Origin: Terriglobia bacterium
GTDB lineage: Bacteria > Acidobacteriota > Terriglobia > Acidiferrales > UBA7541
NCBI GenBank assembly: GCA_963695545.1
Contig: OY968796.1
Span: 2,240,001 to 2,304,000 of the forward strand
Length of the DNA stretch: 64,000 nucleotides
Reading direction: 5' to 3'
The notes beneath the pieces were generated by a model, which was not told where the DNA came from, made no database searches, and saw only the letters and a list, made by a program, of their open reading frames with translations. Shown here one piece after another: positions 5,406 through 54,642 of the stretch; within the stretch, counting starts at the first letter, position 1; every line of letters begins with the position of its first letter. A program made the translations under genes and the position numbers.

Positions 5406-5699
5406 CGCGCGGGCCTACGAACGCCGCACGCTTCAGTGGTAACGACACAGTGGGGAGCGTACAGAGTCTCCCGGTCTCTGCGGTAAGACAACTCGAATTG
5501 GTAAATCGTGATCGAGATATTGCGGACGCTGTAAAACACCTCGCGTCCGCACTCGGTCGCTGGTACTACCCAATTCGATTTCGCAGGCCGTGGCTGTGAT
5601 GTAGACTCTTTCGCTGGAACTGGTGCAAAAACTCGGGGTGGTGGCCACAGCTGTTTCTTGTCGACGACCAGCTTTGACTACTGCAAGTCTGCAAAGACG

Positions 5700-6368
5700 A
5701 TGAAACCGCAACGGAATATTACTGCCCTCCGCGACCTGGTCCGGGATCGGATTCAACGCAATATCGACGTCAAGCGCGCGTTGCTGGCCGATGTCGGTTT
5801 TCAAGATCAAGTAGCACAGGTCGCGGCGCGAATTGTGAAGTCGCTTCGCGCGGGTGGCAAGGTGATCTTCTTCGGCAACGGTGGAAGCGCCGCCGATGCG
5901 CAACATCTGGCCGCGGAATTCACGGGACGCTATGTGAAGGAACGTCGGGCGCTCGCGGCGATTGCGCTCAATACGAACTCTTCCTCAATGACGTCGATCG
6001 GCAACGATTATGGATTCGATTTTGTGTTCGCGCGTCAAATCGAAGCGCTGGGCAAAGAGGGAGATGTCGCGATTGGCATTTCAACCAGCGGAAATTCGGG
6101 CAATGTGCTTCGAGCCCTCGAATCTGCAAAATCGAAATCGATGTATACGGCCGCTCTGACCGGTGCATCCGGTGGAGCGGTGAAAAATATTGCGGATTGC
6201 ACGATTTGCATTCCTTCGGAAGAGACTCCTCGAATTCAAGAGTGTCATGTGCTCGCCGGTCACCTGATCTGTGAAATTGTGGAATTACTGCTCTTCGGGT
6301 CGCCCGACGTGGAATTCGCTGAAGCTGGTGGCGCGGCGGCGCGGCGTCGGGTCTCGAATCCGAAATAA
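5700..6368 (+). CDS. gmhA: D-sedoheptulose 7-phosphate isomerase (copy 1)
   Basis: FGNGGSAADAQHLAAEF, GNDYGF, ISTSGNS, TPRIQECH motifs. Confidence 0.92.
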   Translation: MKPQRNITALRDLVRDRIQRNIDVKRALLADVGFQDQVAQVAARIVKSLRAGGKVIFFGNGGSAADAQHLAAEFTGRYVKERRALAAIALNTNSSSMTSIGNDYGFDFVFARQIEALGKEGDVAIGISTSGNSGNVLRALESAKSKSMYTAALTGASGGAVKNIADCTICIPSEETPRIQECHVLAGHLICEIVELLLFGSPDVEFAEAGGAAARRRVSNPK

Positions 6369-7700: not shown

Positions 7701-8273
7701 ATGGAACTCGAAATGGGAAGCCAGAGCTGGTTCGCGGTTCAGGTGAGGACTCGCTGGGAGGCCTCCACGGCCTTGCTGCTTTCCGGCAAGGGCTACGAAA
7801 CCCTGCTACCTACCTATAAGACTAAGAAGCGCTGGAATGGAAGGCTGAGAGAGGTCAACGCGGCGCTATTCCCGGGTTACGTGTTCTGCCAATTCGATGC
7901 TCAGAAGCGGCTACCCGTCCTAGTCACGCCGGGCGTGATTTCAGTGGTGGGCTCCGGCCGAATCCCTATTGCGGTGGCGGACACCGAAATCGCCGCGATC
8001 CAAACAGTTGTTTCGTCGGGTCTGCGCGCGGAGCCATGGCCTTACCTTGAACTGGGGCAAAGAGTTCGAATCGAGCGCGATGCGCTAGAGGGCCTGGAAG
8101 GAATCCTGATTAATTTTAAGGGCAATCATCGACTGGTGGTGTCCGTAACGCTGCTTCGGCGTTCGGTGGCTTTGGAAGTTGACCGTTCTTGTGTGAGATC
8201 TGTCGGCCCGAGTCGATCGACGGTACTTGAGCCGATTGCTTCTCGTTCCATGCTGCAAGGAGTGGTGGCCTAA
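7701..8273 (+). CDS. NusG-paralog transcription antiterminator (RfaH/UpxY/LoaP-like)
   Basis: WFAVQVRTRWE, LFPGYVF NGN motif; KOW-like GQRVRIERDALEGLEGIL; first gene of a long polysaccharide operon. Confidence 0.9.
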   Translation: MELEMGSQSWFAVQVRTRWEASTALLLSGKGYETLLPTYKTKKRWNGRLREVNAALFPGYVFCQFDAQKRLPVLVTPGVISVVGSGRIPIAVADTEIAAIQTVVSSGLRAEPWPYLELGQRVRIERDALEGLEGILINFKGNHRLVVSVTLLRRSVALEVDRSCVRSVGPSRSTVLEPIASRSMLQGVVA

Positions 8274-8368: not shown

Positions 8369-9568
8369 GTGGGCACTGCAATTGGAAATGGGAATATGGT
8401 AATTCCTCCGCACGGAAATCAAGGCTCGCAAAAGGGAAGAGGCCGCAAGGCATTGTCGCGCTTTGGCCACTTGCCGGCTGGGTCGAGAATCGTTCTTAAC
8501 GAAGACGCCTTCCACGCAATGCTGACGATCGAACGCCGGCGAGCGGAACGTTCCGGCAAGCCATTCGTTCTGATGGTCATCGACTCCCAAGCGGTGCACA
8601 AGAACGGGAACGCGGCAAGCTTCGCTGCGCAACTCACTTCTGTCGTTTCCAACGCAACGCGCGAGACGGATTTCGTAGGCTGGTACGCCGAGGGCAGTAG
8701 TCTCGGCGTGATATTTACGGAAATTAATCTAGAGGGAACGAACTCCGTAGCCGACGTCCTGCAGTCCAAGATCACCGCGGCACTGCACGATCATCTCGAT
8801 CAGAAGATCGCAGCTAGCCTCGTGGTCACCGTTCACCTATTTCCGGAAAGCTGGGATAAGGGTTTCCCAGATCGAGTGGCAGACGTCAAACTTTATCCGG
8901 ATCTTTCCCAGAAGGCGTCAAAAAAGCGGCTTGGGATGATTGTGAAGCGCGCGATTGATATTATGGGCGGCGCGCTGTTGCTGATCGCGCTCGCGCCGGT
9001 TCTGGGGATCGTCGCACTGGCAATCAAGCTTTCCTCCAAGGGGCCCGTTCTATTTAGTCAGGACCGGCTAGGTCAATTCGGAGAAGGCTTCAAGTGCCTG
9101 AAGTTTCGTACGATGTATACAAACAACGATCCAAAGCTCCATCGTGAATTCGTACAGCAATTCATCGCCGGAAAGATGGAGAACGAGAACAAGGATGAGA
9201 CCGGGCCCACGGTTTATAAGATTACAAATGATCCACGCGTGACCTCGGTTGGAAGATTTCTCCGCAAGACGAGTCTGGATGAGTTTCCCCAATTCTGGAA
9301 TGTCTTGCGAGGCGAAATGTCTCTGGTGGGCCCCCGCCCACCGGTTCCATACGAATTCGAAGTGTACGATTTCTGGCATCGGCGTAGAGTCCTCGAAGTG
9401 AAGCCAGGCGTCACAGGGTTGTGGCAAGTGAGTGGCCGGAGCAGCACATCTTTCGATGATATGGTCCGGCTTGACTTGCAGTATTCCCGAAGCTGGTCGC
9501 TGTGGCTCGATGTAAAGATCCTACTGGCTACTCCGCGCGCGGTTTTCACTGGTGACGGTGCTTTCTAA
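8369..9568 (+). CDS. Priming sugar (polyprenyl-phosphate glycosylphosphoryl) transferase with N-terminal extension
   Basis: [62 protein letters not shown] motifs. Confidence 0.92.
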
Positions 9569-9771: not shown

Positions 9772-10773
9772 ATGATTCGAGTAGGTGTCATCGGTTATGG
9801 ATACTGGGGCCCGAATATCGTTCGGAACCTTCACGGATTGGACTCAACGCGGGCCGAGATGGTTTGCGACAAGAGCCCTGCCGCGCTGGCGCGCGCGCGG
9901 AGGGCCTATCCAGGTATTCGAACAGTTTCCGATCCAGGGGAGATACTGCGTTCTCCGGACATCGACGCGGTCGCGGTGGTCACGCCTGTTTGGACTCACT
10001 ACGAGCTGGCAAAACAAGCGCTTGAGAACGGGAAGCACGTTTTTATTGAGAAGCCGTTCACATCCACCTCCGCTCAAGGCGAAGAGCTGATCGAACTCGC
10101 GGCGCGGAAGAAGCTTACGATCATGGTGGACCATACATTCTTATTCACCGGAGCAGTGCGCAAGATCCGCGAGTTAACCGAGAGCGGGTCTCTCGGCGAT
10201 CTGTACTACTACGATTCGCTGCGCATAAACCTTGGCCTGTTTCAGCATGACGTTAGCGTGATATGGGACTTGGCACCGCACGATCTGTCCATCATGGACC
10301 ACATCATTAAGGGTCAGCCTGAGGCCGTGGTGGCCACGGGCGAGAGGCACTTGAACGGCGTGGAAGACGTCGCGTTCATGACGATCTATTTCCCGCGAAA
10401 TGTGATTGCGCACATCAACGTCAACTGGCTCTCGCCGGTGAAGATCCGGACCACGCTCATCGGCGGCCAAAAGAAAATGCTCGTTTGGAACGACCTGGTA
10501 GCCGATGAAAAAATACGCGTCTACGATAGGGGCGTTACCATTGATTCGGGAGAAGGCATTCGGGATCTTCTTGTGAGCTATCGCACGGGCGACATGTGGG
10601 CGCCGCAGGTGGAACAATTGGAGGCGTTGCACGTGGAGATGGACTATTTTGCGGACTGCATTATGAACAACAAGACCCCCTTCAACGACGGTCACGCCGG
10701 GCTGCGCGTCGTGCGAATGCTGGAAGCGGCGGAAGCTTCGATTCAAAAAAGAGGCGAATTGGTCCGCCTGTGA
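9772..10773 (+). CDS. Gfo/Idh/MocA oxidoreductase (NDP-sugar dehydrogenase, WbpB/WlbA-like role)
   Basis: GVIGYGYWG, HVFIEKP, WDLAPHDLS motifs. Confidence 0.88.
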   Translation: MIRVGVIGYGYWGPNIVRNLHGLDSTRAEMVCDKSPAALARARRAYPGIRTVSDPGEILRSPDIDAVAVVTPVWTHYELAKQALENGKHVFIEKPFTSTSAQGEELIELAARKKLTIMVDHTFLFTGAVRKIRELTESGSLGDLYYYDSLRINLGLFQHDVSVIWDLAPHDLSIMDHIIKGQPEAVVATGERHLNGVEDVAFMTIYFPRNVIAHINVNWLSPVKIRTTLIGGQKKMLVWNDLVADEKIRVYDRGVTIDSGEGIRDLLVSYRTGDMWAPQVEQLEALHVEMDYFADCIMNNKTPFNDGHAGLRVVRMLEAAEASIQKRGELVRL

Positions 10774-10939
10774 GCGATTAGTTCCGCGTCGCGACGAATG
10801 CAACTCTTGCCAGAGATGCTAAGCTGTTCGATGTCTAGCGCCGAATTTAAGATCTAACCTTGGGGTGTGGCGAGTTCGTCGGTGCGGAGTATGAAGACCG
10901 CACCGAGGGCGTGCCCCTCTCAGAGGTGGTTGTTGAGTC

Positions 10940-11935
10940 TTGAATGGGAAGGGTGGGAAGCCTTTGCAGCAAAAGATCGATGATTGCCGGGCGGGGACCG
11001 CTGTGGCCGACGATCTTTCATGGGCGCTGTTCCGCAAGATGCTCCAGGTGCGTCGCGTGGAAGAGTCTCTACTTCAGCTGTTTTCTCGGGGCCTGCTATT
11101 CGGCACCGTGCATACGTGTATTGGCCAGGAGGTCTGCGGCGTCGGAGTGACCCAAGCCCTTAACCCCGCCAAGGACGTTTTGTGGTCGAATCATCGAGGG
11201 CACGGTCATTACCTGTCGTTCACGGGAGACCTGCAAGGACTCTTGTCCGAAATCCTGGGAAAGGCCGGTGGGGCCTGCGGCGGAGTCGGAGGCAGTCAGC
11301 ACCTGCATTATCGCAACGTATATACGAACGGTATTCTGGGAGGAACGGTCCCTTGCGCGGTTGGCTGCGCATTCGCCGAAAAATTCAAGGGCAACGATGC
11401 CGTCGTGGTGGTTTTTCTCGGCGATGGCGCTCTCGGGGAGGGCATTGTTTACGAGGGCATGAATATTGCATCACTTTGGGGCTTGCCGGTTCTCTTCGTT
11501 CTGGAGGACAACGGATACGCGCAAAGCACTCCTCGGTCATACGAGCACTCGGGCGACATCGAAACGCGGGCAAGAACTTTTGCGATTCCTACGACCATCC
11601 TGAAGGCCGACAACGCAATCGATGTGTGGCGCGCGACGGGCAAAATCGTCAGTGAAATGAGACTCGATCTGCGCCCCCAGATGCTGGTGCTGCAGACGTA
11701 CCGATTGGCGCCGCACAGTAAGGGCGATGATAACCGCGATGAAAAGGAGATCGCCGCCCACTGGGCCGCGGATCCGCTCGCGCGCCATCGTGAAATACTA
11801 AGGGCCGAAAACCCGGAGCGCCTCGAGCAGATTGAAAAGGAAATCGGCGACGAAGTTCAGCGTTGCATAAATGTCGCGATCGACGATCAACCCACTGACC
11901 TCGCCCGATTCCTTGGACACATAGACAAACCATGA
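10940..11935 (+). CDS. ThDP-dependent 2-oxoacid dehydrogenase E1 alpha-like subunit
   Basis: HTCIGQE, SNHRGHGH, GDGALGEG...EDN ThDP motif, TYRLAPHSKGDD; exact start uncertain. Confidence 0.9.
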   Translation: MNGKGGKPLQQKIDDCRAGTAVADDLSWALFRKMLQVRRVEESLLQLFSRGLLFGTVHTCIGQEVCGVGVTQALNPAKDVLWSNHRGHGHYLSFTGDLQGLLSEILGKAGGACGGVGGSQHLHYRNVYTNGILGGTVPCAVGCAFAEKFKGNDAVVVVFLGDGALGEGIVYEGMNIASLWGLPVLFVLEDNGYAQSTPRSYEHSGDIETRARTFAIPTTILKADNAIDVWRATGKIVSEMRLDLRPQMLVLQTYRLAPHSKGDDNRDEKEIAAHWAADPLARHREILRAENPERLEQIEKEIGDEVQRCINVAIDDQPTDLARFLGHIDKP

Positions 11936-12930
11936 CCTATCTGGAAGAGTTGAATACCGGCCTTCGACAGGTTCTCTCAACCACAGAGGACGTCGTCCTA
12001 TTCGGTGAAGATTTGCTGGATCCGTACGGCGGCGCGTTTAAGGTGACTCGTGGTTTGCAGCACGATTTTCCGCGGCGAGTGCTGACGACACCGATAAGTG
12101 AGGCGGCGCTCACCGGCATGGCCACGGGTATGGCGCTGCGAGGCCTTCGCCCGGTTTTGGAGATCATGTTTGGCGATTTTATGGGACTTTGCATGGATCA
12201 AATTTTGAACCATGCCTCGAAGTTCCGAATGATGTACAACGACCAGGTCAAGATTCCAATCACGATCCGGACGCCCATGGGCGGCGGGCGAGGCTATGGA
12301 CCCACGCACAGTCAATGCATCGAAAAACTTTTCCTGGGCATTCCGGACATACGGATTGTCGCACCGTCTATATTTTGTGAAGTCGCGCAACTTTTGAAGC
12401 AGGCGATATTCGATGATCGGCCTGTTTTGTTTATCGAGCATAAACTTTTGTATTCAGCTGAATTGCTGACTTCCTCGGTACCTGGACTTTTGATCGAGAA
12501 TAAGCTCGGTGGCTACGGCTATCCGGTTTCGGTCATCCGCAACTACACTTCCGGCAGTCCTGACGTTACGCTGATCACTTACGGAGGCGCGTCGCGCTTC
12601 GTGCCGACGATCTTCCAGCACCTCGCAGAAGAGGAAGTCCGGGCCGTCGCCTGCATACCTGCTCTGATCAAACCGCCGCCTTTCCAATTGATAGAAGAGC
12701 TCGTAGCTGAGTCGGGCCGTGCGGTCATCGTCGAAGAGGGAATCGTGCAATGGGGCTGGGGCGCGGAGTTGGCAGCGCGTCTGCATGATTCTTTGTTTGG
12801 CAAACTGACCAAACCGGTGCGCAGAATTGGTGCGTTGGACACGATTATTCCTGCGTCGAAGACTCTCGAGCAGGCGGTCCTTCCCTCAAGCCAAGACATT
12901 GAGAAGGCGCTTCTGGAGATGGTCGAGTGA
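11932..12930 (+). CDS. 2-oxoacid dehydrogenase E1 beta-like subunit
   Basis: FGED, TPISEAALTG, RPVLEIMFGDF, GPTHSQ, FIEHKLLY; ATGA overlap with E1 alpha. Confidence 0.9.
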   Translation: MTYLEELNTGLRQVLSTTEDVVLFGEDLLDPYGGAFKVTRGLQHDFPRRVLTTPISEAALTGMATGMALRGLRPVLEIMFGDFMGLCMDQILNHASKFRMMYNDQVKIPITIRTPMGGGRGYGPTHSQCIEKLFLGIPDIRIVAPSIFCEVAQLLKQAIFDDRPVLFIEHKLLYSAELLTSSVPGLLIENKLGGYGYPVSVIRNYTSGSPDVTLITYGGASRFVPTIFQHLAEEEVRAVACIPALIKPPPFQLIEELVAESGRAVIVEEGIVQWGWGAELAARLHDSLFGKLTKPVRRIGALDTIIPASKTLEQAVLPSSQDIEKALLEMVE

Positions 12931-14072
12931 CACATTTCATTGAAGCGCCCATGGTCAATGTGAATGACGACACCGTGATCCTGACCCGCTGGGTCAAACC
13001 GGAGGGGAGTTTGGTGCACAAAGGCGAGCCGATCGCCGTCATCGAAACGACCAAAGCCACCTTCGATCTGGAGTCCGAACATGCTGGTTACCTTCGTGCT
13101 TTTGCCGCGGACGGTGCAACAGTAGCGGTGGGTGAAATCCTCGGGGCCATTTGTGAGACCGCTGATGAACGGCCTGAGAAACCAGTTGCTCCCGCACCGG
13201 TGATCGCCGCGGGCGGTGCGGCGTCGCGAAAGGTCACGAAAAAGGCGGAGATTGCCGCTCGCAAAGCGGGTCTCGACCTTGAGAAATTGATCGCGGAAAT
13301 CCCCGGAACCGGAGCCGTGACGGAGGCGGAGATTCGAGATTATTTAGCCCATCGTGGATCTCGCACGGCCGCTGCGCCACGTTTGGACGCGCGGGATTTG
13401 GTCGATGATGCGTATCCCCAAAATCGGCAGCAGCGCCTCCTACTCATTGGAGGCGGATTGGGCGCGGTGCAGCTTTTAGATTCCCTAACGCGCGTGGAGA
13501 ATCAACGGGCGACCGCCATCGTAGACGACAACGCCGATCTACATGGCAAGACCGTGATGGGCGTTCCGGTTCTCGGCGGACAGAATGACATCGAAGGACT
13601 CTTCGCGCGAAAGCTGTTTGACGCTGCCGTGGTGTCGGTCAGCACCAGCGTTGCCTTTCGACAGCGCATGTTTGAGAACCTCGCGCAGTTGAAAATTCCG
13701 ATGGCGAACGTCATCGATCCTAGCGCACGGGTGCAAAGAAACGCAGCACTCGGCACAGGGAACGTGATCCTGGCATATTGCCACGTCGGTTCATGTGCGG
13801 TGATCGGAAACGGAAACTTTCTAAGCCCCTTCGTTGACGTTGAGCATCATTGCGCTGTTGGAGATTTTTGTACTTTCGGACCGGGAGTCATGATGAGCTC
13901 TCTGGTGAATATCGGTAACGGCGTGAAATTTGGGACTGGAGTTTTTATCGAACCCAAGATAACGATCGGATCGAACAGTATCATCGGCTCAGGCGCGATA
14001 CTCGTCGGCAACATTCCAGAGAATTCCATTGTGAAAACAACAATGGGCTACACAGTTCGTCCTCGCGGATGA
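12927..14072 (+). CDS. Fusion: lipoyl domain + subunit-binding-like segment + PglD/NeuD-type left-handed beta-helix acyltransferase
   Basis: IETTKATFDLES (lipoyl Lys43); KKAEIAARKAGLDLE..IPGTGAVTEAEI (E3/E1-binding-like); LLLIGGG..IVDDN..GVPVLGG (PglD N-domain); hexapeptide repeats with VEHH; GTGA overlap with E1 beta. Confidence 0.85.
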   Translation: MTHFIEAPMVNVNDDTVILTRWVKPEGSLVHKGEPIAVIETTKATFDLESEHAGYLRAFAADGATVAVGEILGAICETADERPEKPVAPAPVIAAGGAASRKVTKKAEIAARKAGLDLEKLIAEIPGTGAVTEAEIRDYLAHRGSRTAAAPRLDARDLVDDAYPQNRQQRLLLIGGGLGAVQLLDSLTRVENQRATAIVDDNADLHGKTVMGVPVLGGQNDIEGLFARKLFDAAVVSVSTSVAFRQRMFENLAQLKIPMANVIDPSARVQRNAALGTGNVILAYCHVGSCAVIGNGNFLSPFVDVEHHCAVGDFCTFGPGVMMSSLVNIGNGVKFGTGVFIEPKITIGSNSIIGSGAILVGNIPENSIVKTTMGYTVRPRG

Positions 14073-14239
14073 GACGACATCCCGAATTTCGCGAGACGTC
14101 AATCGTCGAGAACGCCCTATTTATCAGTAGCTCGACCATCTAGAAACTGAATCCGCACTCAGCAATTCACTTCTGAAATTCACATTACGAAGCACGATCC
14201 GAATCATCAACGGTTCTTACCCCCACCAAAGGTGAACCT

Positions 14240-15445
14240 ATGACACAGAGCGGGAAAATACCGTTTGTCGATCTTGTGACGCTCCACCGTGAGCTTGAGG
14301 CGGAGCTGCTCGATGTGTGCAAGCGAGTGATCGAGACGGCTGGCTTTATCGGAGGTCCCGAGGTAGAGGGCTTCGAGAAGGAATTTGCGCAGTATTGCGA
14401 TACGAAGTATTGCGTCGGCGTGAATAGCGGGACCGACGCGCTTCGCTTCGCGTTGGTGGCGGCGGGAATTCAGTCCGGCGAGATCGTGCTCACCGTGCCG
14501 CACACCTTCATCGCCACGACCGAGGCTATCTCGCAGGCGGGCGCGCGGCCGGATTTTGTCGACATCGACGAACGCACCTTCACGATGGATCCTGACAGGC
14601 TGCGAGCGTACTTAGAAACACGATGCGTGTTGGACCAACGCACGGGGCGCTACGTCCATAAGACTCTGGGGCGACCCGTTGCGGCGGTCGTTCCGGTTCA
14701 TCTTTACGGCCAGATGGCCGATATGGACCCGATTCTCGAGCTCGCGGCGCGCTACAAGTTGGTCGTGATCGAGGACGCCTGCCAGGCACACGGAGCGGAA
14801 TACTTTTCCAAGAAACAGAATCGCTGGTTGAAAGCCGGATCGATCGGGCGTGCGGCCGCGTTCAGTTTTTATCCCGGGAAAAATCTGGGCGCGTGTGGTG
14901 AAGGTGGCGCGGTGACCACGAACGATCAGGAGCTGGCGCGACATTGCGTCATGCTGCGCGATCACGGGTCGATCAAGAAGTATTACCACGACATCGAAGG
15001 TTACAACGGGCGACTTGATTCCATTCAAGCGGGAATGCTGCGCGTGAAATTGCGGCATCTATCGAAATGGAACGAGCAGCGCCGTGAGTGCGCGGGGCGA
15101 TACAACGAGCTTCTGGCGCAACTGCCAGGCAGCGTCAAACTGCCTTATGAACCTTCTTATTCGAGGTCGGTCTATCATCTGTACGTGGTGTCTGCGTCGA
15201 ATCGAGTCGGACTCCAGGATCATTTGAATGCAGCTGGAATCGGCACCGGCATCCATTATCCGATCCCGCTTCATCTTCAGAATGCGTATCGCGAGCTCAA
15301 GTACAAACTTGGAGATTTCCCTATCTCTGAGCAGGCCGCTGCACAGGTACTCTCGTTACCGATGTACGCCGGTCTGCGCGCTGACCAGCAAAGCCAAGTT
15401 GCGGAAACGATGATGGAATTCGCTTCAGTTCATTCGGCTCAATAA
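14240..15445 (+). CDS. DegT/DnrJ/EryC1/StrS sugar aminotransferase
   Basis: NSGTDAL, PVHLYGQ, IEDACQAHGA, FSFYPGKNLGACGEGG, GYNGRLD, LSLPMY. Confidence 0.93.
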   Translation: MTQSGKIPFVDLVTLHRELEAELLDVCKRVIETAGFIGGPEVEGFEKEFAQYCDTKYCVGVNSGTDALRFALVAAGIQSGEIVLTVPHTFIATTEAISQAGARPDFVDIDERTFTMDPDRLRAYLETRCVLDQRTGRYVHKTLGRPVAAVVPVHLYGQMADMDPILELAARYKLVVIEDACQAHGAEYFSKKQNRWLKAGSIGRAAAFSFYPGKNLGACGEGGAVTTNDQELARHCVMLRDHGSIKKYYHDIEGYNGRLDSIQAGMLRVKLRHLSKWNEQRRECAGRYNELLAQLPGSVKLPYEPSYSRSVYHLYVVSASNRVGLQDHLNAAGIGTGIHYPIPLHLQNAYRELKYKLGDFPISEQAAAQVLSLPMYAGLRADQQSQVAETMMEFASVHSAQ

Positions 15446-15561
15446 TTCGTACCCGCCTGCGTCTTAGCTTGGTCCGATCTACCAACGCATTCAGCATCAT
15501 CTAGAGCAATCGTAGCCGAGTCATTGCACTCGGCGATGCAGTTCCACACTTGAAGGAGCAA

Positions 15562-16722
15562 ATGTCCGCGATCCCGTCCATGGCAGGCGCTTCGATCGGT
15601 GCCGGAACCTCGGCGCCGGCGACTCTTTCTGACCCGGTGCGGCTTGGCGAGCTGACTGCCTTGGCCATCGCTGGGCTTCGGCCGATGCTTGATCCCGCCA
15701 CTCGCCTGTTCTGCCACCGATTGGTGCGCACGCGAAGCGGCTTGGTTCGCGAAGGCGTGTCGTTGCGGTACAGTGCGATGACACTTTTGGGTTTGCACCG
15801 TTTGAAATCTTGCGGAAAACAGTTGCCTGTCGATATCCAGCCGATTCTGGATGCATTGCTCGAGAATGTCGGTTGGATGGATAACATCGGCGACGTTGGT
15901 CTTGTGCTCTGGTTGCTCGCTGAAGCGGCTCCGGACCGGCTGAACAAATTTCATGAGGCGATGAATCTTGAACACGCTCTAGAGAGACACCCGGGCGCGC
16001 AAGAAGGGCGAACGATGGAACTCGCGTGGTTTCTTACCGGGCTATCGTGCGCTGCGATCGCTCGGCGTGCGGAACTGTCGGGCGTGAGCGATTTGGCCGC
16101 GGAAACGTATCGACGTCTCGAGGAGAACCTCGGGGAGAGCGGGATTTTCGGCCACCAGTCCGGACACGCCACGTTCGGCGGATTGTTGCGTGGGAGGATC
16201 GGAAGTTTCGCTGACCAGACCTATGCGATCTATGCGATCTCGCGCTTCGTCGCAGCGTTCGAAGAGGATGAGCCGCTAAGCGCGGCGCGCAATTGTGCGG
16301 AGGCGATCTGCGGAGCGCAAGGTCCTCTGGGACAATGGTGGTGGCACTATGATTCCGCTTCGGGAGAGGCCGTTCGGGGCTATCCGGTCTTTTCCGTTCA
16401 CCAGGATGCCATGGCTCCTATGGCGCTTCTCTCGCTTGGAAAGTTGCTTGGGGAGGATTTTTCGGAATTCGTCGCGAAGGGCATTCGGTGGGTTGGCGGT
16501 CAGAACGAACTTGGAGTTGATCTGCGCGACGGGCGAGCAGGCGTCATCTGGCGCGGAATTCAACTAACGGCAAAGTTCCAGATGTACCTCGATGATTTTC
16601 TCGGGATGATCCGAAATCGAGCCGACGTCGGCGCGCACCGCGAGATCGCGGTTCTACGCGAGTGTCGACCGTACGAATTGGGGTGGTTGTTGTATGCATT
16701 TGCGGAAGAAGCGGCGCAATAG
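15562..16722 (+). CDS. Hypothetical protein, probable (alpha/alpha)-toroid fold
   Basis: Long ORF in operon orientation, GGAG RBS before ATG 15562; helical repeats with Q..GQWWWHYD and SVHQDAMAPM; no function assignable. Confidence 0.65.
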   Translation: MSAIPSMAGASIGAGTSAPATLSDPVRLGELTALAIAGLRPMLDPATRLFCHRLVRTRSGLVREGVSLRYSAMTLLGLHRLKSCGKQLPVDIQPILDALLENVGWMDNIGDVGLVLWLLAEAAPDRLNKFHEAMNLEHALERHPGAQEGRTMELAWFLTGLSCAAIARRAELSGVSDLAAETYRRLEENLGESGIFGHQSGHATFGGLLRGRIGSFADQTYAIYAISRFVAAFEEDEPLSAARNCAEAICGAQGPLGQWWWHYDSASGEAVRGYPVFSVHQDAMAPMALLSLGKLLGEDFSEFVAKGIRWVGGQNELGVDLRDGRAGVIWRGIQLTAKFQMYLDDFLGMIRNRADVGAHREIAVLRECRPYELGWLLYAFAEEAAQ

Positions 16723-35043: not shown

Positions 35044-36090
35044 ATGATAATTACACGCACCCCGCTTCGCATTTCGTTTTTTGGAGGAGGCACTGACTAT
35101 CCGGTCTGGTACCGCCAGCATGGCGGAGCCGTATTGTCGACGACCATCGATAAATCTTGCTACATCACAACCAGGTGGCTTCCGCCCTTTTTCGAGTACC
35201 ACAGTCGCATTTCTTATACGAAGGTGGAGAACGTCGGTGCGAACACCGAAATTGAACACCCATCTGTGCGCGCTTGCCTGCAGTTCATGGGAATCGACGG
35301 TGGCGTGGAAGTTCATCACATAGCTGACTTGCCGGCGCGGACCGGTTTGGGTACGAGCTCGGCGTTTACGGTTGGCCTGCTTCTCGGCCTGTATGCGCTG
35401 AAAGACAAGATGCGAGACAAGCAAAGCCTTGCTGCCGACGCAATACACGTAGAACAGGATTTGATTCAAGAAGCTGTTGGGGCGCAGGATCAAGTGAGCG
35501 CTGCGTACGGGGGCTTCAATCGTATTAACTTCCAACCCGACGGCGCGATTGACGTGAAGCGCATTCTGGCCGCTCCTAGCAGATTGACCGAGCTGGAGCA
35601 GCATTTGGCGCTCTACTTCACAGGGTTTGCTCGCACTGCTTCAGAGATCGCCAAAGAGCAACTCAAGGCGACCCCTAATCGGCAACGGGAGTTGAACGAA
35701 ATGTTCCAGATGGTGAGCGAGGCTGAGGACATCGTCACCAGCCCCGGCCGTTCATTGAATGAATTTGGGAGACTGCTGCACGAGGGTTGGCAGATAAAGC
35801 GGACGTTGACGCAGCGGATCTCGAATGACAGCATTGATGAAATCTACGAGGCCGGGCTAAGCGCCGGCGCGCTTGGGGGAAAGCTCCTGGGCGCTGGTGG
35901 GGGAGGATTCATGCTGTTCTTCGTGCCACCCGAGCGGAGGGAAGCACTCAGGGCACGCTTGAAGAAGCTTTTGTGCGTCCCATTCGGGTTCTCCAATCGA
36001 GGCAGCGATGTCGCCGTCTACGAGTCCGAGGTAGCTTACGACAAATCGCTTGCGAGCGACCGGTCCGAGATCTATGCCCAACGCGGCTGA
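35044..36090 (+). CDS. hddA: D-glycero-alpha-D-manno-heptose 7-phosphate kinase (GHMP family)
   Basis: RTPLRISFFGGGTD, DLPARTGLGTSSAF, GAQDQ, GGKLLGAGGGGF. Confidence 0.88.
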   Translation: MIITRTPLRISFFGGGTDYPVWYRQHGGAVLSTTIDKSCYITTRWLPPFFEYHSRISYTKVENVGANTEIEHPSVRACLQFMGIDGGVEVHHIADLPARTGLGTSSAFTVGLLLGLYALKDKMRDKQSLAADAIHVEQDLIQEAVGAQDQVSAAYGGFNRINFQPDGAIDVKRILAAPSRLTELEQHLALYFTGFARTASEIAKEQLKATPNRQRELNEMFQMVSEAEDIVTSPGRSLNEFGRLLHEGWQIKRTLTQRISNDSIDEIYEAGLSAGALGGKLLGAGGGGFMLFFVPPERREALRARLKKLLCVPFGFSNRGSDVAVYESEVAYDKSLASDRSEIYAQRG

Positions 36091-36820
36091 CGCGATACTG
36101 CTCTGTGGCGGAGCTGGCCTTCGACTGAGAAGCGTTACGGGAAATGCCCCCAAAGCGCTAGCGAGTATCGGCGGCCGGCCATTTCTGGAATTGCTTCTCG
36201 GCCAGCTGCGACGGCATGGGTTCCAACGCATCATTCTGGCTGTGGGCTATGGGAACGACGCGATCCGCTCGTACTTCGGTGATCGGGCGCTCGGCCTGAC
36301 GCTAGGATATGCGATCGAGTCAGAACCGCTAGGGACCGGCGGCGCGTTGCGCAATGCGGTCGATCTCATCGAATCGAACGCGGCGCTGATTATGAACGGC
36401 GACAGCTACACCGACGCTGATTTGTCCGCGTTTGTGGCCGACTACCGCGAAGCAGAACCCGATATCTCGATGATTGTGGTGCCGGCGGATGGTCGCGTGG
36501 ATTGCGGTCTGGTGTCGGTGAATTCCAGCCGAGAAGTGGTCGGATTCAAGGAAAAGCAGTCTACGTCTGGGACGCCGTACGTCAACGCCGGCATATACCT
36601 TACGACGAAGCGCACCCTCAGCGGTATCCCTGCTGGAGTGCAGATCTCCTTGGAACATGAGCTTTTCCCGCGATGGCTTGCTGAAGGTAGGCATATCAGG
36701 GCGTTTAGCTATTCGGGTAGTTGCATCGATATCGGCACTCCAGAGCGGTATCGGGAAGCGCAAGATTCCTTGGCGAGCGTCGAAGTTGATGGGAGCTTGC
36801 CGGGGCCCGAGGGTGAGTGA
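36074..36820 (+). CDS. hddC: Heptose 1-phosphate guanylyltransferase-like nucleotidyltransferase
   Basis: ILLCGGAGLRLR, PKALA, EPLGTGGAL, NGDSY, IDIGTPE; lies between hddA and gmhA. Confidence 0.8.
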   Translation: MPNAADAILLCGGAGLRLRSVTGNAPKALASIGGRPFLELLLGQLRRHGFQRIILAVGYGNDAIRSYFGDRALGLTLGYAIESEPLGTGGALRNAVDLIESNAALIMNGDSYTDADLSAFVADYREAEPDISMIVVPADGRVDCGLVSVNSSREVVGFKEKQSTSGTPYVNAGIYLTTKRTLSGIPAGVQISLEHELFPRWLAEGRHIRAFSYSGSCIDIGTPERYREAQDSLASVEVDGSLPGPEGE

Positions 36821-36884
36821 GCTTAAATTCAACTAGTGCTTGTGCTCGATTGAGAAACGAGCGCAGCGCTAACCTGGACGGCCT

Positions 36885-37556
36885 ATGAAAGAGCACGAGA
36901 AGATTGAGTTCCTGCATGAGCTGGTGCGCGATCGAATTCAGCGCAACATTGACGTCAAGCAAGTGTTACTGAGCGATGCCAATTTTCGCAACCTCGTGGC
37001 GCAAGTGTCGATGCAAATCGTGAAATCGCTCCGTACGGGCGGCAAAGTCATCTTCTTCGGAAATGGTGGAAGCGCCGCGGACGCGCAGCATCTGGCGGCG
37101 GAATTCACAGGGCGCTACTTGAAAGAGCGGCGAGCACTGCCTGCGCTCGCGCTCAATGCGAACTCGTCGTCCGTAACGGCCATCGGAAACGATTACGGAT
37201 TCGAATTTGTGTTCGCCCGGCAATTGGAAGCGCTGGGCAACGAAGGGGACGTTGCCGTGGGCATTTCGACCAGCGGGAATTCGCGAAATGTGCTCTGCGC
37301 GCTACAAGCGGCCAAGACGAAATCCATGTACACGGTGGCCCTCACCGGAGCGACCGGCGGATCGATGAGAAATGTCGCGGACTGCACGATTCGCATTCCT
37401 TCAGACGAAACTCCCCGAATTCAAGAGTGTCATATTCTAGCGGGTCATTTGATCTGTGAAATTGTGGAGCTGATGATGTTCGATTCTTCCGGACGGACCG
37501 ATTCTGTAGATGACATCGCTGCGGGACGTCCGCGCACTGTTCCGGAAAAAAACTAG
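36885..37556 (+). CDS. gmhA: D-sedoheptulose 7-phosphate isomerase (copy 2)
   Basis: Same motifs as 5700-6368, closely similar sequence. Confidence 0.92.
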   Translation: MKEHEKIEFLHELVRDRIQRNIDVKQVLLSDANFRNLVAQVSMQIVKSLRTGGKVIFFGNGGSAADAQHLAAEFTGRYLKERRALPALALNANSSSVTAIGNDYGFEFVFARQLEALGNEGDVAVGISTSGNSRNVLCALQAAKTKSMYTVALTGATGGSMRNVADCTIRIPSDETPRIQECHILAGHLICEIVELMMFDSSGRTDSVDDIAAGRPRTVPEKN

Positions 37557-37572
37557 GGAACGGGAATCCAGC

Positions 37573-38208
37573 TTGCTGCGTATATTTTTTTCTGATCCTA
37601 CGAGGACTGGCAGAGGCCCGGCCATTTTTATTGACCGCGACGGCGTAATAAACTGCAGGCGACCCGGAGATTATGTTCTGAATTGGTCGCAGTTCGTTTT
37701 TGTGCCAGGCATTCGGTCGGCGCTAAGGCAGCTCTCAAGTTTAGGGTTGCCAATAATAATTGCGTCTAATCAGGCGGCCGTTGGTAAAGGTCTGTTAGCT
37801 GCGGATAGGCTTCAAGAGATCACAGCTCAGTTGCATCAAATCCTTCATGCTGATGGCACAATACTCACCGCTGCCTATTATTGTCCGCATAAGCCGAGCG
37901 ACGATTGTGTTTGCAGAAAACCCAAGCCGGAGTTGCTGTACAAAGCGGCCCATGATTTCAATCTTGATTTGGGCCGATCCATTTTCATTGGCGATTCCGA
38001 CACAGATGTCCAAGCAGCCCAGGCGGCCGGCTGTAAGCCCATACTTTTCGGTTCCGGCCATGCGGCATCTTCCGGCTCATCGGCATGGGCCGTCGGACTC
38101 CCTACTGCGCGCGCGGCGAACGAAGTCTTCGATATTGCGGCGAATTGCCTGTACAAGGGAGACCGTAGTGGATCAGGCGATCGCGGTACTCGACCTGCTG
38201 GATTATAA
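37573..38208 (+). CDS. gmhB: D-glycero-D-manno-heptose 1,7-bisphosphate phosphatase (HAD IIIA)
   Basis: FIDRDGVIN, SNQ, CPH..DCVCRKPKP, IGDSDTD; start uncertain (37510-37573). Confidence 0.88.
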   Translation: MLRIFFSDPTRTGRGPAIFIDRDGVINCRRPGDYVLNWSQFVFVPGIRSALRQLSSLGLPIIIASNQAAVGKGLLAADRLQEITAQLHQILHADGTILTAAYYCPHKPSDDCVCRKPKPELLYKAAHDFNLDLGRSIFIGDSDTDVQAAQAAGCKPILFGSGHAASSGSSAWAVGLPTARAANEVFDIAANCLYKGDRSGSGDRGTRPAGL

Positions 38209-39113: not shown

Positions 39114-39344
39114 GCGGTTCCATCGCGATGTGAGTGTGGGAATTGTTTTGCAATCGCGCATTCGTTCCGATTCTCAGTATCTACCGAGTTCGATATTGGC
39201 CAGTCGCGAAACACATTCTCAGGTCTCCGTGTCCTCTCCGGGAACCCCAAGCAGGAATGAATAGTTCTCAGGATAAGGATTCGCAATCTACTGTTCCCTA
39301 GGGCCAGAGAGTAAGACTTGGTCCAAGGGCGAAAGGAGTGTCCT

Positions 39345-40658
39345 TTGAAAATCAGCGTCTTCGGATTGGGTTATGTTGGAACCGTTTCGGCGGGATGCCT
39401 CGCCCAAGACGGTCATAAGGTCATCGGTGTAGATCCTGTCCGCACGAAAGTTGAACTCATAAATGCCGGGCGCTGCCCCATCATTGAGGCGGATATCGGC
39501 GAAATCATCGCGGCGACGGTCAAGAGCGGCCGGCTCCGGGCAACCGGCGATCAAGAAGAGGCTATTCGCGAAACAGAACTGTCCTTCGTCTGCGTCGGCA
39601 CTCCGAGCCAGGCCAACGGCAATCTCGATCTGACCTACATCCGACGTGTTTGCGAATTGATCGGCAAGAGCCTGAAGAACAAACCGGGTCGCCATACGGT
39701 CGTCATCCGCAGCACGGTTTTACCCGGGAACGATGCGTCAGATTGTTATTCCTACGCTAGAGGAATGGTCGGAGAAGAAGGCAGGAGTTGACTTCGGCGT
39801 TTGCAATAATCCTGAATTCTTGCGGGAAGGTTCGGCGGTAAAGGATTTCAATTCGCCTCCCAAAACCGTCATTGGGGAACTGGATCCTCCAGCGGGGACT
39901 TACTGGAAGCGCTGTACGCGAAACTGAAGGCACCTTTCATTCGGACGGATATAGAGACCGCGGAGATGGTCAAGTACGTCGATAACAGCTGGCATGCGCT
40001 GAAGATTGGTTTTGCGAACGAGATCGGAAATTTATGCAAGTCGTTCTCCATCGACGCGCACGAGGTCATGAAGATTTTCTGCCAAGACAAGAAGCTCAAC
40101 ATCTCTCCGGCATATCTCTTGCCGGGTTTTGCCTTCGGCGGTTCTTGCTTGCCCAAGGATCTGCGAGCCCTGGCGTACAAAGCCAAAGTGAGCGATTTGG
40201 AGTTGCCCATCATGAATGCAATTCTGCCCAGTAACGAATTGCAGATTGGAAAGGGCGTGCAACTCATAACGGACAAAGGGCACAAGCGAATCGGCATCTT
40301 GGGCTTCAGCTTCAAGGCCGGCACAGACGATCTGCGAGAAAGTCCCATGATCGATGTCATAGAGCGCCTCATCGGCAAGGGCTATGACCTGCGAATTTAT
40401 GACAGGAACGTAAATTTGGCCAGTTTGGTGGGCGCCAATCGCGATTTCATTCTCAATCACATTCCGCACATCTCGAGGTTGATGGTGAATCGCATCGATG
40501 CGGTTCTGGACCACGCTCAAACAATCGTGATCGGTAATAAGGATCCGGAGTTTCAGGATGTGATCGATCACCTGCGCGAAGGTCAACGCGTGGTGGATTT
40601 CGTCCGAATCTCAAGTCATAGGAGTGAAAATGGCAAGTACGACGGTATCTGCTGGTAA
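39345..40658 (+). pseudogene. NDP-sugar dehydrogenase (AlgD/Ugd family, AlgD-like), frameshifts near 39730 and 39890
   Basis: KISVFGLGYVG, CVGTPS, RSTVLPG | NPEFLREG | KYVDN, FGGSCLPKD, FKAGTDDLRESP, GICW spread over three frames. Confidence 0.85.
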
Positions 40659-44517: not shown

Positions 44518-44793
44518 CGCGGGGCCGTTTAACGCGCCTTCTTCGGAGTCAGGATCGGAAGACCCTTAAGGCACCTAATTGAACAACTTCGGAGCTGAAA
44601 GGATCTGTTAATCAAACCGCAGACGTTCCTTTTGCTTGGTTTGTGATTTTGTCCGCCACGGAGATATCGAGATTTCCGCGCGTTGCGGCAGTGCGCGGCT
44701 AGATTGGCGCGCGCCCTCCGAACCGCGCGCTCGGCAGTTAAACACGTGATCCCTGCTGTCGCGTTCAAAGGCAGCTCACCCAGAGAGGTTGCG

Positions 44794-45990
44794 ATGCTGA
44801 ATTGTGATGTGGCAATCCTTGGCGCCGGTCCATATGGCTTAGCGGCGGGCGCGCATTTGCGGAATATCAAGGGTCTTGATGTTCGAGTGTTTGGTGAGCC
44901 CATGGATTTCTGGAAATCGCACATGCCGGAGGGTATGTTCCTGCGATCGCCTTGGGCAGCTTCGCAGATATCGGATCCGCAATCGTCTCTAACTATGGAC
45001 GCATTCCGTCAGGCCACGGGCACGGAGATATCCAAACCGATTCCGCTTGATCGGTTTGTCGACTATGGACTTTGGTTTCAGAGTCAAGCCGTCCCGGAAG
45101 TGGATCGCCGCCACATCGAGCGAATCGATCAGCGTGCAGGAAGTCTCTGTGTAACTCTCGAGGATGGTGAACAGCTTTCCTGCAAGCGCGTTGTAGTCGC
45201 GGCGGGTATCAGCACGTTCGCGCGTCGTCTCTCGCAGTTTGAGGGGATTTCGCCCGAATTCGTAACGCACGCGTCGGATGGGAGAGACGTCCACAGATTC
45301 GCTGGCAAGCGGGTCGCCGTGGTCGGCGCGGGACAAAGCGCGCTTGAATCGGCAGCTCTGATTCATGAAGCGGGCGCGGAAGTGGAAGTGATCGCCCGCC
45401 AGTCGAGCGTGCATTGGCTGGGCTGGCGGGCGAGAATGCAGAAGCTCGGTCCCATCGCGAAGTTGCTCTATTCACCGCACGACATAGGTCCGGCCGGCGT
45501 CAGCCGAATCGTCGCCATGCCGCAATCCATGAAATATTTTCCGCGTGTCGTGCAAAATCGTTTTCGAATCCGTGCGCTCCGCCCTGCCGGGGCGCGCTGG
45601 CTTCAGCCCCGCTTCCACAGCATTCCCATTACCACCAGACGGCAGATTACGACCGTGGCGATGTCGGGCGACCGGCTGAATCTCCGGTTGGATGATGGCA
45701 CTACTCGCGATGTGGATCATGTTTTGCTCGGCACCGGATACAAGGTCGATGTCTCGCGCTATCCATTTCTGCCGGCGGAGTTGAGCAATAAGTTAGATCA
45801 AGCGAATGGCTTCGTGAAAGTAAACCGGGGATTCGAGTCATCCGTTCCGGGCTTACATTTCCTGGGCGCTCCTACTGCCTGGACTTTCGGCCCGCTCATG
45901 TATTTCGTTTGTGGAACTGATTTCGCCGCTCGACAACTGGCCGCATATGTTTCGCGCACAGGCACACGTTCGGGAAGTGGTTCAAAGTGA
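44794..45990 (+). CDS. FAD/NAD(P)-dependent oxidoreductase
   Basis: VAILGAGPYGL, VVGAGQSALE, LGTGY, FESSVPGLHFLG; paralog at 60518-61759. Confidence 0.85.
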   Translation: MLNCDVAILGAGPYGLAAGAHLRNIKGLDVRVFGEPMDFWKSHMPEGMFLRSPWAASQISDPQSSLTMDAFRQATGTEISKPIPLDRFVDYGLWFQSQAVPEVDRRHIERIDQRAGSLCVTLEDGEQLSCKRVVVAAGISTFARRLSQFEGISPEFVTHASDGRDVHRFAGKRVAVVGAGQSALESAALIHEAGAEVEVIARQSSVHWLGWRARMQKLGPIAKLLYSPHDIGPAGVSRIVAMPQSMKYFPRVVQNRFRIRALRPAGARWLQPRFHSIPITTRRQITTVAMSGDRLNLRLDDGTTRDVDHVLLGTGYKVDVSRYPFLPAELSNKLDQANGFVKVNRGFESSVPGLHFLGAPTAWTFGPLMYFVCGTDFAARQLAAYVSRTGTRSGSGSK

Positions 45991-46018
45991 TGTCTCCTGC
46001 CAAGGGAGCTTAATTCAG

Positions 46019-47221: not shown

Positions 47222-47332
47222 GGTACGCTCGTAAATATTTTCCCGACACAAGCGACGGGGCTCCGAACCAAAGAAAGCGCTCGGCAACAGTTCTTTCAGG
47301 AATAGATATCCGGCTTGAAATAGAGAGAAATT

Positions 47333-49551: not shown

Positions 49552-50042
49552 AATTGATCGGGAGCTTGCGAAATACTCTCGGGGTTCGCGGTCGGCGGCA
49601 GTCGGTTGCCACGCGAGGAGTAGCGCGGGAAAATTGGCGGCGCCGGGAATCGGAGTGCCTCCGCATCTTGATTCACAACGCCCGCTGAACCAGCTTGCAA
49701 TTCGGTCATTGGCATGCTATTTCGAGCGCTAAGCATGTTTGCGGGTATGATCGTAACGATGGAGTCAACTGCCTAGGGGTCTGAGGAAACTCGCGTTGAT
49801 GACTTTTTGCCGGAAGTAAAAATGGTGGAAAGTGGGTAGAGCGCAGCCGGTCTATATTTAGGCGAAATTGTTTCCACTCCCGGGGGCGGAATGGCTGCAG
49901 GAAACGGTCAATTCGGTACTAAGACACTTGTTTACAGCGACATACGAGAAGTCAGTAGTGGTCCGTCGATTGCTCTCTTCATGGTCAAATGCATGTCTAC
50001 TCGATCGCTACGAAGGAGACGGAGCCCGAACAGACCCCATTG

Positions 50043-51140: not shown

Positions 51141-51184
51141 CAATTCCCAGGTGGATCCCGCCTACAAGGCCGTGGAGGAGTTGA

Positions 51185-52048: not shown

Positions 52049-52150
52049 ACATCGTGCCATCCGGTCAACCGACGAGAAAGCACCCCGATCGTTAGCGCAC
52101 CGCTCAGACCCGGAAGGTAATATCTTCGATTCCATCTCGTCGCGTGGACT

Positions 52151-53200: not shown

Positions 53201-53265
53201 CAGCGCAGCTGGAATTCGATGCTCTTCGCTCGGGCGCTCCAACTCTTCGCCGGCCCGGCTCCAGT

Positions 53266-54498: not shown

Positions 54499-54642
54499 CG
54501 TCGATCATCTCTCCGAACTTCGCGGAAATTGAACAGCTGCGCGAACCTGAATTTACATTGTTCAGTTACGAAATTCGAGGCGAATCGCTCGCCGTCGTTT
54601 CTCACGACCGTCGTAATATAGGACGTCTCATTACTCTCTAAT

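Follow-up and report, generated by a model that had tools for sequence, protein, structure and literature searches.

A stretch of 64,000 nucleotides from the genome of a Terriglobia bacterium (contig OY968796.1, positions 2,240,001 to 2,304,000; hereafter the window) contains three adjoining genes that code for an E1α-like and an E1β-like subunit of a thiamine diphosphate (ThDP) enzyme and for a fusion protein, in which a lipoyl domain is joined to a sugar N-acyltransferase. E1α, E1β and the fusion are a conserved three-gene unit. As judged from sequence comparison and from a predicted model, the fusion combines the design of E2, the acyltransferase component of the 2-oxoacid dehydrogenase complexes, with a catalytic core of the PglD/PerB type. 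These features point to a so far undescribed route by which a 2-oxoacid serves directly to acylate amino sugars, with no need for coenzyme A (CoA). No description of this architecture was found in open-access PMC papers and bioRxiv, although subscription-only papers could hold one. With moderate confidence, the trio is proposed to be a self-contained machine that generates an acyl group and transfers it to a nucleotide-linked amino sugar: E1 would load the lipoyl group of Lys43, the lipoyl arm would replace acyl-CoA, and the housekeeping E3 (lipoamide dehydrogenase) would reoxidise the arm.

Structure of the fusion protein

The initial annotation, made from the letters of the window, had described a lipoyl domain with the motif ETTKA around Lys43, an E2-like subunit-binding segment, and a PglD/NeuD-type acyltransferase with an EHH motif in the place of the E2 catalytic domain. 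All three assignments have held up (Table 1). The family profile aligns with the genome's own E2 by hhalign with a probability of 97% over 149 columns, which comprise the lipoyl domain and the peripheral-subunit-binding domain (PSBD). Residues 104-148 of the fusion are paired with residues 203-246 of the E2, and the alignment does not extend past the point at which the E2 catalytic domain would start. The Pfam E3_binding model gives weak matches to the subunit-binding segment in 15 of 103 family members. The E2 catalytic domain itself (2-oxoacid_dh, PF00198) has no Pfam match in the fusion, and the protein is therefore not an E2, although its first half-reaction would resemble that of a 2-oxoacid dehydrogenase. 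The NeuD/PglB/VioB model TIGR03570 matches residues 171-370 with an E-value of 1.8e-41. By sequence and model, the protein thus keeps the E2 order of lipoyl domain, linker, subunit-binding domain and linker on a β-helix core of the PglD/PerB type.

The AlphaFold2 model, calculated from 103 homologues, has a mean predicted local distance difference test (pLDDT) value of 91.4. From the N to the C terminus it contains a β-barrel lipoyl domain (residues 1-80), three short helices (105-143, pLDDT about 85-89), a Rossmann-like domain (169-254) and a left-handed β-helix (255-375). The Ala/Pro-rich linkers 92-99 and 146-155 are disordered, with pLDDT below 50. In a Foldseek search the C-terminal half superimposed on PerB (4ea7) and on the acetyltransferase domain of NgPglB (4m98) with template modelling (TM) scores of 0.88-0.90, depending on the target, and root mean square deviations of 1.3-1.6 Å. 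In the alignment, His307 of the EHH motif occupies the position of PerB His141. The deposited PerB mutants H141N and H141A (PDB 4eaa and 4eab) are altered at this residue, which is N in the 4eaa sequence.

Eight residues are invariant in the alignment of 103 members, whose identities go down to 35%: E40, K43, T104, A107, A111, H307, G318 and P319. The Gly-rich loop and D200-D201 of the nucleotide-binding domain are kept, and the conservation of G175, G177, D200 and D201 is complete or at least 90%. In place of Ala158-Gly159 of PerB, which we take to be the oxyanion-hole region, the family has an invariant Ser324 with a further Ser behind it, a family-specific change near the thioester site. 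The GTG start of the fusion is supported by P8, which lies upstream of the alternative start Met9 and is at least 90% conserved.

Distribution of the family

A protein search yielded 173 relatives, of which 120 were listed. Both Biotin_lipoyl (PF00364) and Hexapep (PF00132) are present in 112 of the 120, at a length of about 370-410 residues, and the other eight are mostly short fragments. Among the 103 aligned members, Biotin_lipoyl and Hexapep match every protein, and PglD_N matches 96. The ESM Atlas holds many clusters that share the fusion's three Pfam domains, none of them functionally named.

The loci were scanned in one genome per species, which gave 136 relatives; locus counts given here refer to the best 80 loci, designated by L numbers. 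By the titles of their records, these come from Acidobacteriota, Chloroflexota, Planctomycetota, Armatimonadota, Verrucomicrobiota, Actinomycetota, Pseudomonadota, Desulfobacterota, Bacillota, Nitrospinota and others. Cultured carriers among them are Pelagicoccus mobilis, Rheinheimera nanhaiensis, Acanthopleuribacter pedis, Catellatospora, Micromonospora and four species of Actinoplanes. A search of 60 other genomes from the taxonomic family of the window, three of them from the same genus, gave no further fusion, which is consistent with a glycan gene set that is mobile and varies between strains.

Three loci have features of their own. The record of L051 is titled 'uncultured Enterobacteriaceae bacterium', a label that looks wrong, as the locus has 70% GC and DUF1552 and TIR neighbors. 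Near the module, the A. pedis locus (L067) contains an additional fusion-like fragment and an additional transketolase-like β subunit (674-997 and 10752-11720). A second acyltransferase-like match lies at 79-783 of the Nitrospinales locus L064.

The E1 subunits and their linkage to the fusion

Linkage to E1 could be examined in 67 loci, each with at least 2.1 kb of upstream sequence. E1α and E1β genes lie beside the fusion gene in 64 of them. Both genes are directly upstream on the same strand in 61 loci, L048 has the same arrangement with a gap of 927 nucleotides, and in L062 and L069 the pair is directly downstream of the fusion. The identity of the fusion co-varies with that of E1β (Spearman 0.76) and of E1α (0.62; n = 61), values that are descriptive only, because kin are not independent. 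The module E1α is 25-28% identical to the three other E1α proteins of its genome and 41-67% identical to module E1α proteins of other phyla. Being closer to the latter, it belongs to an orthologous group of its own. Neither an E3 gene nor an E2 catalytic domain was found within 7 kb of the module in any of the 80 loci, and tblastn with the genome's E2 hit solely the N-terminal lipoyl/PSBD part of the fusion.

By sequence comparison, the E1 is nearest to the E1 of pyruvate dehydrogenase (PDH). The best match of E1α in the PDB is human PDH E1α (4.6e-41), and the PDH E1α equivalog model TIGR03182 gives it 221.8 bits against a cut-off of 393.85. The scores of E1α for TIGR03181 (154.3 against 411.35) and of E1β for NF006667 (193.9 against 321) are likewise below the cut-offs. 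The ThDP/Mg motif of E1α, G161-D162-G163...N191 (with Y193 in the window protein), aligns with those of the human and Geobacillus stearothermophilus PDH E1, and αH259 corresponds to the His before the phospho-Ser of the human enzyme. In E1β, E57, F83 and H126 align with E59β, F85β and H128β of G. stearothermophilus E1p. All of these (GDG, N191 and H259 in 66 α sequences; E57, F83 and H126 in 69 β sequences) are at least 97% conserved.

In G. stearothermophilus E1p, H128β is the proposed proton donor in the reductive acetylation of lipoate, and H271α assists the same step; the position of H128β is a His in all known E1s but not in other ThDP enzymes (PMC2663715). The retention of βH126 and αH259, as the residues of reductive acylation, argues that the module E1 still works on a lipoyl arm.

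Proposed pathway of acyl transfer

In the proposed pathway, E1α/E1β would use ThDP to decarboxylate a 2-oxoacid, or to cleave another ThDP donor, and would reductively acylate lipoyl-Lys43, as the conservation of the catalytic residues suggests. The S-acyl-dihydrolipoyl arm would then take the place of acyl-CoA in the donor groove of the β-helix. His307 would deprotonate the amine of a nucleoside diphosphate (NDP)-amino sugar, and the acyl group would pass directly onto the nitrogen. In the window the acceptor is probably made by the two flanking enzymes, the Gfo/Idh/MocA dehydrogenase being the probable maker of the keto sugar and the DegT aminotransferase that of the amino sugar. The E3 encoded 1.2 Mb away would reoxidise the dihydrolipoyl arm in trans, and the subunit-binding segment would hold E1 and/or E3. 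The N-acylated sugar would probably be used by the neighboring priming transferase and so enter a surface polysaccharide. We infer in this scheme that Lys43 is lipoylated, that transfer is direct and independent of CoA, and that E3 is shared. The acyltransferase presumably forms a trimer. A complex predicted, without controls, from the lipoyl domain (residues 1-88) and three copies of residues 160-381 had a score of 0.00, a value that carries no weight for or against the scheme. LpxA and LpxD are β-helix acyltransferases that accept a thioester tethered to a carrier protein, acyl-acyl carrier protein (acyl-ACP).

The identity of the acyl group can be suggested tentatively. That the E1 is nearest to PDH E1 speaks for acetyl from pyruvate, whose probability we put clearly short of even; the larger remainder goes to a group without a ready CoA pool, for example glycolyl. 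Against acetyl stands the fact that two additional genes have been kept in many phyla, as would be expected for a group that acetyl-CoA could not provide. The 2-oxoacid might be a co-product of the neighboring transamination. There was no consistent candidate among the conserved neighbors for a gene supplying the 2-oxoacid, and the residues of the E1 pocket gave no acyl identity either. Whether the fusion represents a third kind of 'E2' is a nearly balanced question, on which we lean slightly to the negative. Such an enzyme would be a trimeric β-helix N-acyltransferase with its own lipoyl arm, which moves acyl groups that have no CoA pool (e.g. glycolyl) from a 2-oxoacid to an NDP-amino sugar without CoA or ACP.

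The host genome encodes LipA, LipB and one true lipoamide dehydrogenase, Lpd. The latter belongs to a separate Lpd-LipB-E1α-E1β-E2 operon (1014607-1020389), which also holds the only PF00198 domain of the genome, at 1019715. Two further E1 sets of the host, at 3549961 and, as an α-β fusion, at 2589007, have no E2 of their own. In 25 other carrier genomes, Lpd scores above the cut-off in 24, LipA is present in all at E ≤ 1e-60, and canonical E2s occur in 23. The two carriers lacking any E2 catalytic domain, G014 and G020, both have GcvH, which already explains their Lpd and LipA.

Genomic neighbors and alternative explanations

Neighbors were counted in 45 loci with at least 6 kb on both sides, as families encoded within 7 kb of the module. 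DegT aminotransferases are found in 26 of these loci, Gfo/Idh/MocA dehydrogenases in 18 and priming transferases in 12; 31 loci have DegT or Gfo. The same three families rank first after the trio itself in an unbiased clustering of all open reading frames (ORFs), with DegT in 31 loci. Elsewhere the partners are dTDP-sugar genes (RmlC-like isomerase, 4,6-dehydratase-type enzymes, C- and O-methyltransferases), glycosyltransferases and radical-SAM enzymes. The donor module is thus constant, and it is the acceptor pathway that differs between loci. In three unrelated lineages (L044, L059 and L067) the module has radical-SAM/SPASM and B12-binding radical-SAM genes at its flanks, which suggests further unusual sugar tailoring.

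Several observations weigh against a dedicated lipoyl-to-sugar transfer. No DegT, Gfo or priming transferase is encoded within 7 kb in 13 of the 45 loci, and most of these 13 belong to Caldilineaceae-type Chloroflexota. In 8-11 loci of this type, the genes before E1α encode a type II pantothenate-kinase-like protein, an aldo-keto reductase and a hotdog thioesterase; in L012, L013, L016, L017, L020, L022, L027, L028, L031 and L048 they lie on the same strand, about 2-5 kb upstream of the fusion. No sugar genes were found within 7 kb of the Caldilineaceae-type modules, whose neighbors hint at CoA or thioester chemistry, not at sugars. These loci are given limited weight, because they represent a single lineage. 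Furthermore, L021 and L049 have no adjacent E1, and L066 has only an E1β-like fragment upstream. The TIGR03570 score of the fusion, 142 bits, is under the curated cut-off of 160.8. Judged by its sequence, the fusion may still have an acyl-CoA site, and the placing of the arm in the donor groove is conjectural. If the group were simply acetyl, the advantage over a common acetyl-CoA-dependent enzyme would be uncertain. Lpd and LipA, though needed by the proposed pathway, are common genes and their presence therefore does not discriminate. The initial annotation, which had proposed a CoA-independent passage of an acyl group from lipoamide to the NDP-amino sugar, has fared unevenly. Its architecture and linkage are strongly supported by the 64 of 67 loci, by the invariant Lys43 and His307, by the retained lipoate-acylating residues and by the lack of an E2 core and an E3 at the 80 loci. 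The chemistry that it proposed is plausible, and the sugar context is not universal.

Four other explanations were considered, in falling order of probability. It is unlikely that the fusion is an ordinary acetyl-CoA-dependent N-acetyltransferase, with E1α/E1β acting separately on the sugar, for example in two-carbon branching, and with the lipoyl/PSBD part as a scaffold or redox acceptor. A pure scaffold would need neither Lys43 nor E40, both invariant in all 103 members, and βH126 and αH259, which serve the reductive acylation of lipoate, are at least 97% conserved. The lipoyl domain, furthermore, is joined in every member to the acyltransferase and not to E1. On the other side, the normal catalytic apparatus of PglD/PerB is intact and the module is flanked by enzymes that form keto sugars. 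For the sugars of avilamycin and paulomycin, it has been proposed that E1-like pairs without a lipoyl partner use pyruvate to add a C-4 acetyl branch. Gram-negative lipopolysaccharide contains branched octoses, which also speak for this explanation (PMC4753412).

The β-helix domain could also be a non-homologous substitute for the E2 core that passes the acyl group to CoA or pantetheine. The trio would then be an unconventional 2-oxoacid dehydrogenase making acyl-CoA, to be used by the fusion or by another enzyme. The order lipoyl-PSBD-catalytic domain is exactly that of E2, PDB complexes show CoA thioesters bound by β-helix acyltransferases, and the pantothenate-kinase-like and thioesterase genes of the Caldilineaceae-type loci, free of sugar genes, would be at home in such a system. 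Acetoin-dehydrogenase AcoC is said to join a lipoyl domain to a non-E2 fold; the model NF011457 matches the fusion at residues 4-120 only, and in 24 genomes it had no match, not in the controls either. Nevertheless, the acyl-CoA-making function is quite unlikely. The nucleotide-sugar-binding N-domain is kept in 96 of the 103 members with its Gly loop and DD pair invariant or nearly so, the majority of loci, 31 of 45 by the presence of DegT or Gfo, are sugar clusters, and 23 of the 25 carrier genomes already own canonical E2s. Moreover, a single donor groove and a sugar pocket would leave no obvious second site for a thiol.

An acceptor other than a nucleotide sugar, such as another amine or alcohol in a small metabolite, lipid or peptide, would make the glycan clusters one of several uses of the module. 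The 13 loci without the three sugar families are in keeping with this, as are the minimal or non-glycan contexts in Actinoplanes and Caldilineaceae and the NeuD-family score under its cut-off. We consider it very unlikely, since the fold and the nucleotide-binding motifs match those of NDP-sugar N-acetyltransferases, DegT is the commonest neighbor across phyla by either count, and dTDP-sugar genes occur at other loci. Finally, an artefact of assembly or annotation, or a decaying gene, which the initial annotation had itself raised and which the origin of the genome from a soil metagenome might suggest, can practically be dismissed: the reading frame is open and its catalytic residues are invariant, full-length homologues number more than 100 and come from independent assemblies as well as from cultured strains (P. 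mobilis, R. nanhaiensis, A. pedis and Actinoplanes spp.), 112 of the 120 listed homologues have the same architecture, and a contig from a different sample of the same study spans the whole gene (12497-14400) with zero differences. Transfer from a lipoyl arm to an NDP-amino sugar is the explanation we prefer.

The polysaccharide cluster of the window

The trio lies on the plus strand with its neighbors (Table 1). As first described, its genes are coupled by overlaps of 4 nucleotides, which were checked in the DNA: ATGA at 11932-11935, where the E1β start overlaps the E1α stop, and GTGA at 12927-12930, where the fusion start overlaps the E1β stop. The start codon of E1α is uncertain, because the first ~28 residues are not conserved. 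The placing of the trio between the Gfo/Idh/MocA dehydrogenase and the DegT aminotransferase agrees with the list of ORFs. The trio occupies the slot in which WbpD-type logic expects an N-acetyltransferase, and domain annotation of the window found no second hexapeptide acyltransferase in the polysaccharide cluster. The top NCBIfam match of the dehydrogenase is UDP-GlcNAc 3-dehydrogenase, at 152 bits, far below the cut-off of 450.

Table 1. Genes of the trio, domains of the fusion protein and adjoining genes, in window coordinates
Feature	Position	Strand	Support
NusG-like protein, head of the same-strand polysaccharide cluster	7701..8273	+	PF02357 5.2e-16
Bac_transf priming phosphoglycosyl transferase	8369..9568	+	PF02397 3.9e-66; TIGR03025 292.4 bits
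Gfo/Idh/MocA sugar dehydrogenase	9772..10773	+	PF01408 4e-27
E1α-like ThDP-binding subunit, 331 residues, TTG start	10940..11935	+	PF00676 E1_dh 1.7e-51
E1β-like subunit, 332 residues	11932..12930	+	Transket_pyr 4.3e-32, Transketolase_C 7.7e-20
Fusion protein, 381 residues, GTG start	12927..14072	+	Biotin_lipoyl + TIGR03570 + Hexapep
Lipoyl domain, residues 1-80, Lys43 codon 13053-13055	12927..13166	+	Biotin_lipoyl (PF00364) at 5-75, 5e-10
PSBD-like segment, residues 104-145	13236..13361	+	hhalign to the genome's own E2
PglD_N-type Rossmann-like nucleotide-binding domain, residues 169-254	13431..13688	+	TIGR03570 aligns 171-370
Left-handed β-helix acyltransferase domain, residues 255-375, His307 codon 13845-13847	13689..14051	+	Hexapep 5.9e-15
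DegT/DnrJ/EryC1 sugar aminotransferase	14240..15445	+	PF01041 1.5e-109

The absence of an E3 gene from the window, also noted at first, was borne out: the lipoamide-dehydrogenase model has no match at genome positions 2240001-2304000. A Pyr_redox_2 protein at 44683-45990 was considered as a possible E3 of the cluster and rejected, as it is flavin-monooxygenase-like and is not matched by that model. It is grouped with weak ATP-grasp-like and FemAB/GNAT-like proteins (44683-48385). No PP-binding (ACP) gene adjoins the trio, the nearest PP-binding proteins being 36 kb away, at 49989 and 52151. The sequencing runs for the region are four soil-metagenome DNA runs from one study, and no RNA run is listed.

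The surface-polysaccharide cluster makes up the remainder of a low-GC stretch at about 6-52 kb of the window and contains Wzy, two flippase-type genes, glycosyltransferases, methyltransferases and a heptose-nucleotide set. The GHMP kinase, nucleotidyltransferase, SIS isomerase and HAD phosphatase at 35044-38208 resemble the enzymes of a nucleotide-heptose pathway, and another SIS protein is encoded upstream of the cluster (5658-6368). Directly after DegT, a 390-residue protein (15550-16722) has no Pfam or NCBIfam match. Its homologues are found near the module in L001 (45% identity), L023 and L030 (28-29%). A UDP-glucose/GDP-mannose dehydrogenase is split into two ORFs, one with the N-terminal NAD domain (39318-39791) and one with the central and C-terminal domains (39966-40658), which could be due to a frameshift, a pseudogene or an assembly error. 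The two PP-binding proteins are carrier-protein and thioesterase didomains (49989-51140 and 52151-53200) on either side of a class IV aminotransferase (51185-52048). Beyond them lie a P450 on the minus strand (53266-54498) and an acetolactate-synthase-like ThDP enzyme (54643-56190). Together, the genes at 49989-56190 may form a unit for tailoring or for a small molecule, with which the glycan cluster ends.

Comparison with known systems

If the proposed pathway is correct, the lipoyl arm gains a role beyond the oxidation of 2-oxoacids and glycine, as a dedicated acyl carrier for glycan tailoring, and a CoA-independent acyl-donor route is added to the biochemistry of nucleotide sugars. The catalytic core of E2 would have been exchanged, in a modular way, for an unrelated acyltransferase fold. 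The three-gene module is compact, moves between phyla and is present in cultured strains. Surface polysaccharides probably receive from it an N-acyl group so far tied to no gene, and N-acylated sugars could be produced with its help from cheap 2-oxoacids.

The module shares with the 2-oxoacid dehydrogenase complexes of the E1α2β2 type, those for pyruvate and for branched-chain 2-oxoacids, the E1 folds and catalytic residues, the lipoyl Lys, the Ala/Pro-rich linkers and the subunit-binding domain in E2 order. Its function probably requires E3 and LipA/LipB as well. However, it has a PglD-type β-helix instead of PF00198, no E3 gene in the 80 loci and an E1 below the PDH equivalog cut-offs, and its presumed acceptor is an amine, not CoA. 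With NeuD, PglD, the acetyltransferase domain of PglB, PerB and VioB, the fusion has in common the two-domain fold, the catalytic His, the Gly loop and DD pair, and a place beside DegT in sugar clusters. It differs from that family by about 165 extra N-terminal residues (lipoyl and PSBD), by its E1α/E1β partners and by the score below the TIGR03570 cut-off. The known members use acetyl-CoA, whereas the fusion would take its acyl group from the lipoyl arm.

WbpB/WbpE/WbpD, like GnnA/GnnB, represent the established logic for 3-acylamino sugars. A Gfo/Idh/MocA dehydrogenase, a DegT-type aminotransferase and a β-helix acyltransferase stand side by side in the window as well. Unlike the WbpD/WlbB class, the acyltransferase of the fusion is of the PglD class and comes with its own E1 and lipoyl arm, and the dehydrogenase match is far below its cut-off.

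ThDP enzymes have been recruited to biosynthesis in other systems too. In the quinocarcin (QncN/QncL/QncM) and scleric acid (SclQ1-4) pathways an E1-like enzyme likewise loads a lipoyl domain for biosynthesis and not for energy metabolism. These glycolyl loaders combine the lipoyl domain with an E2-type acyltransferase catalytic domain, and they deliver the acyl unit to an ACP that feeds a non-ribosomal peptide synthetase (PMC6335953). The module has a β-helix sugar acyltransferase instead, with neither PF00198 nor an ACP beside the trio. AviB1/AviB2 and Pau11/Pau12 are E1α/E1β-like pairs that, like the pair of the module, were recruited to sugar-modification clusters. For these, pyruvate is the proposed donor and a C-C bond, the C-4 acetyl branch, the proposed product, and the available part of the paper does not mention a lipoyl protein (PMC4753412). 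The module differs in having a lipoyl domain next to E1 in 64 of 67 loci, fused to an N-acyltransferase, a distinction that is drawn from the published description of the Avi and Pau systems.

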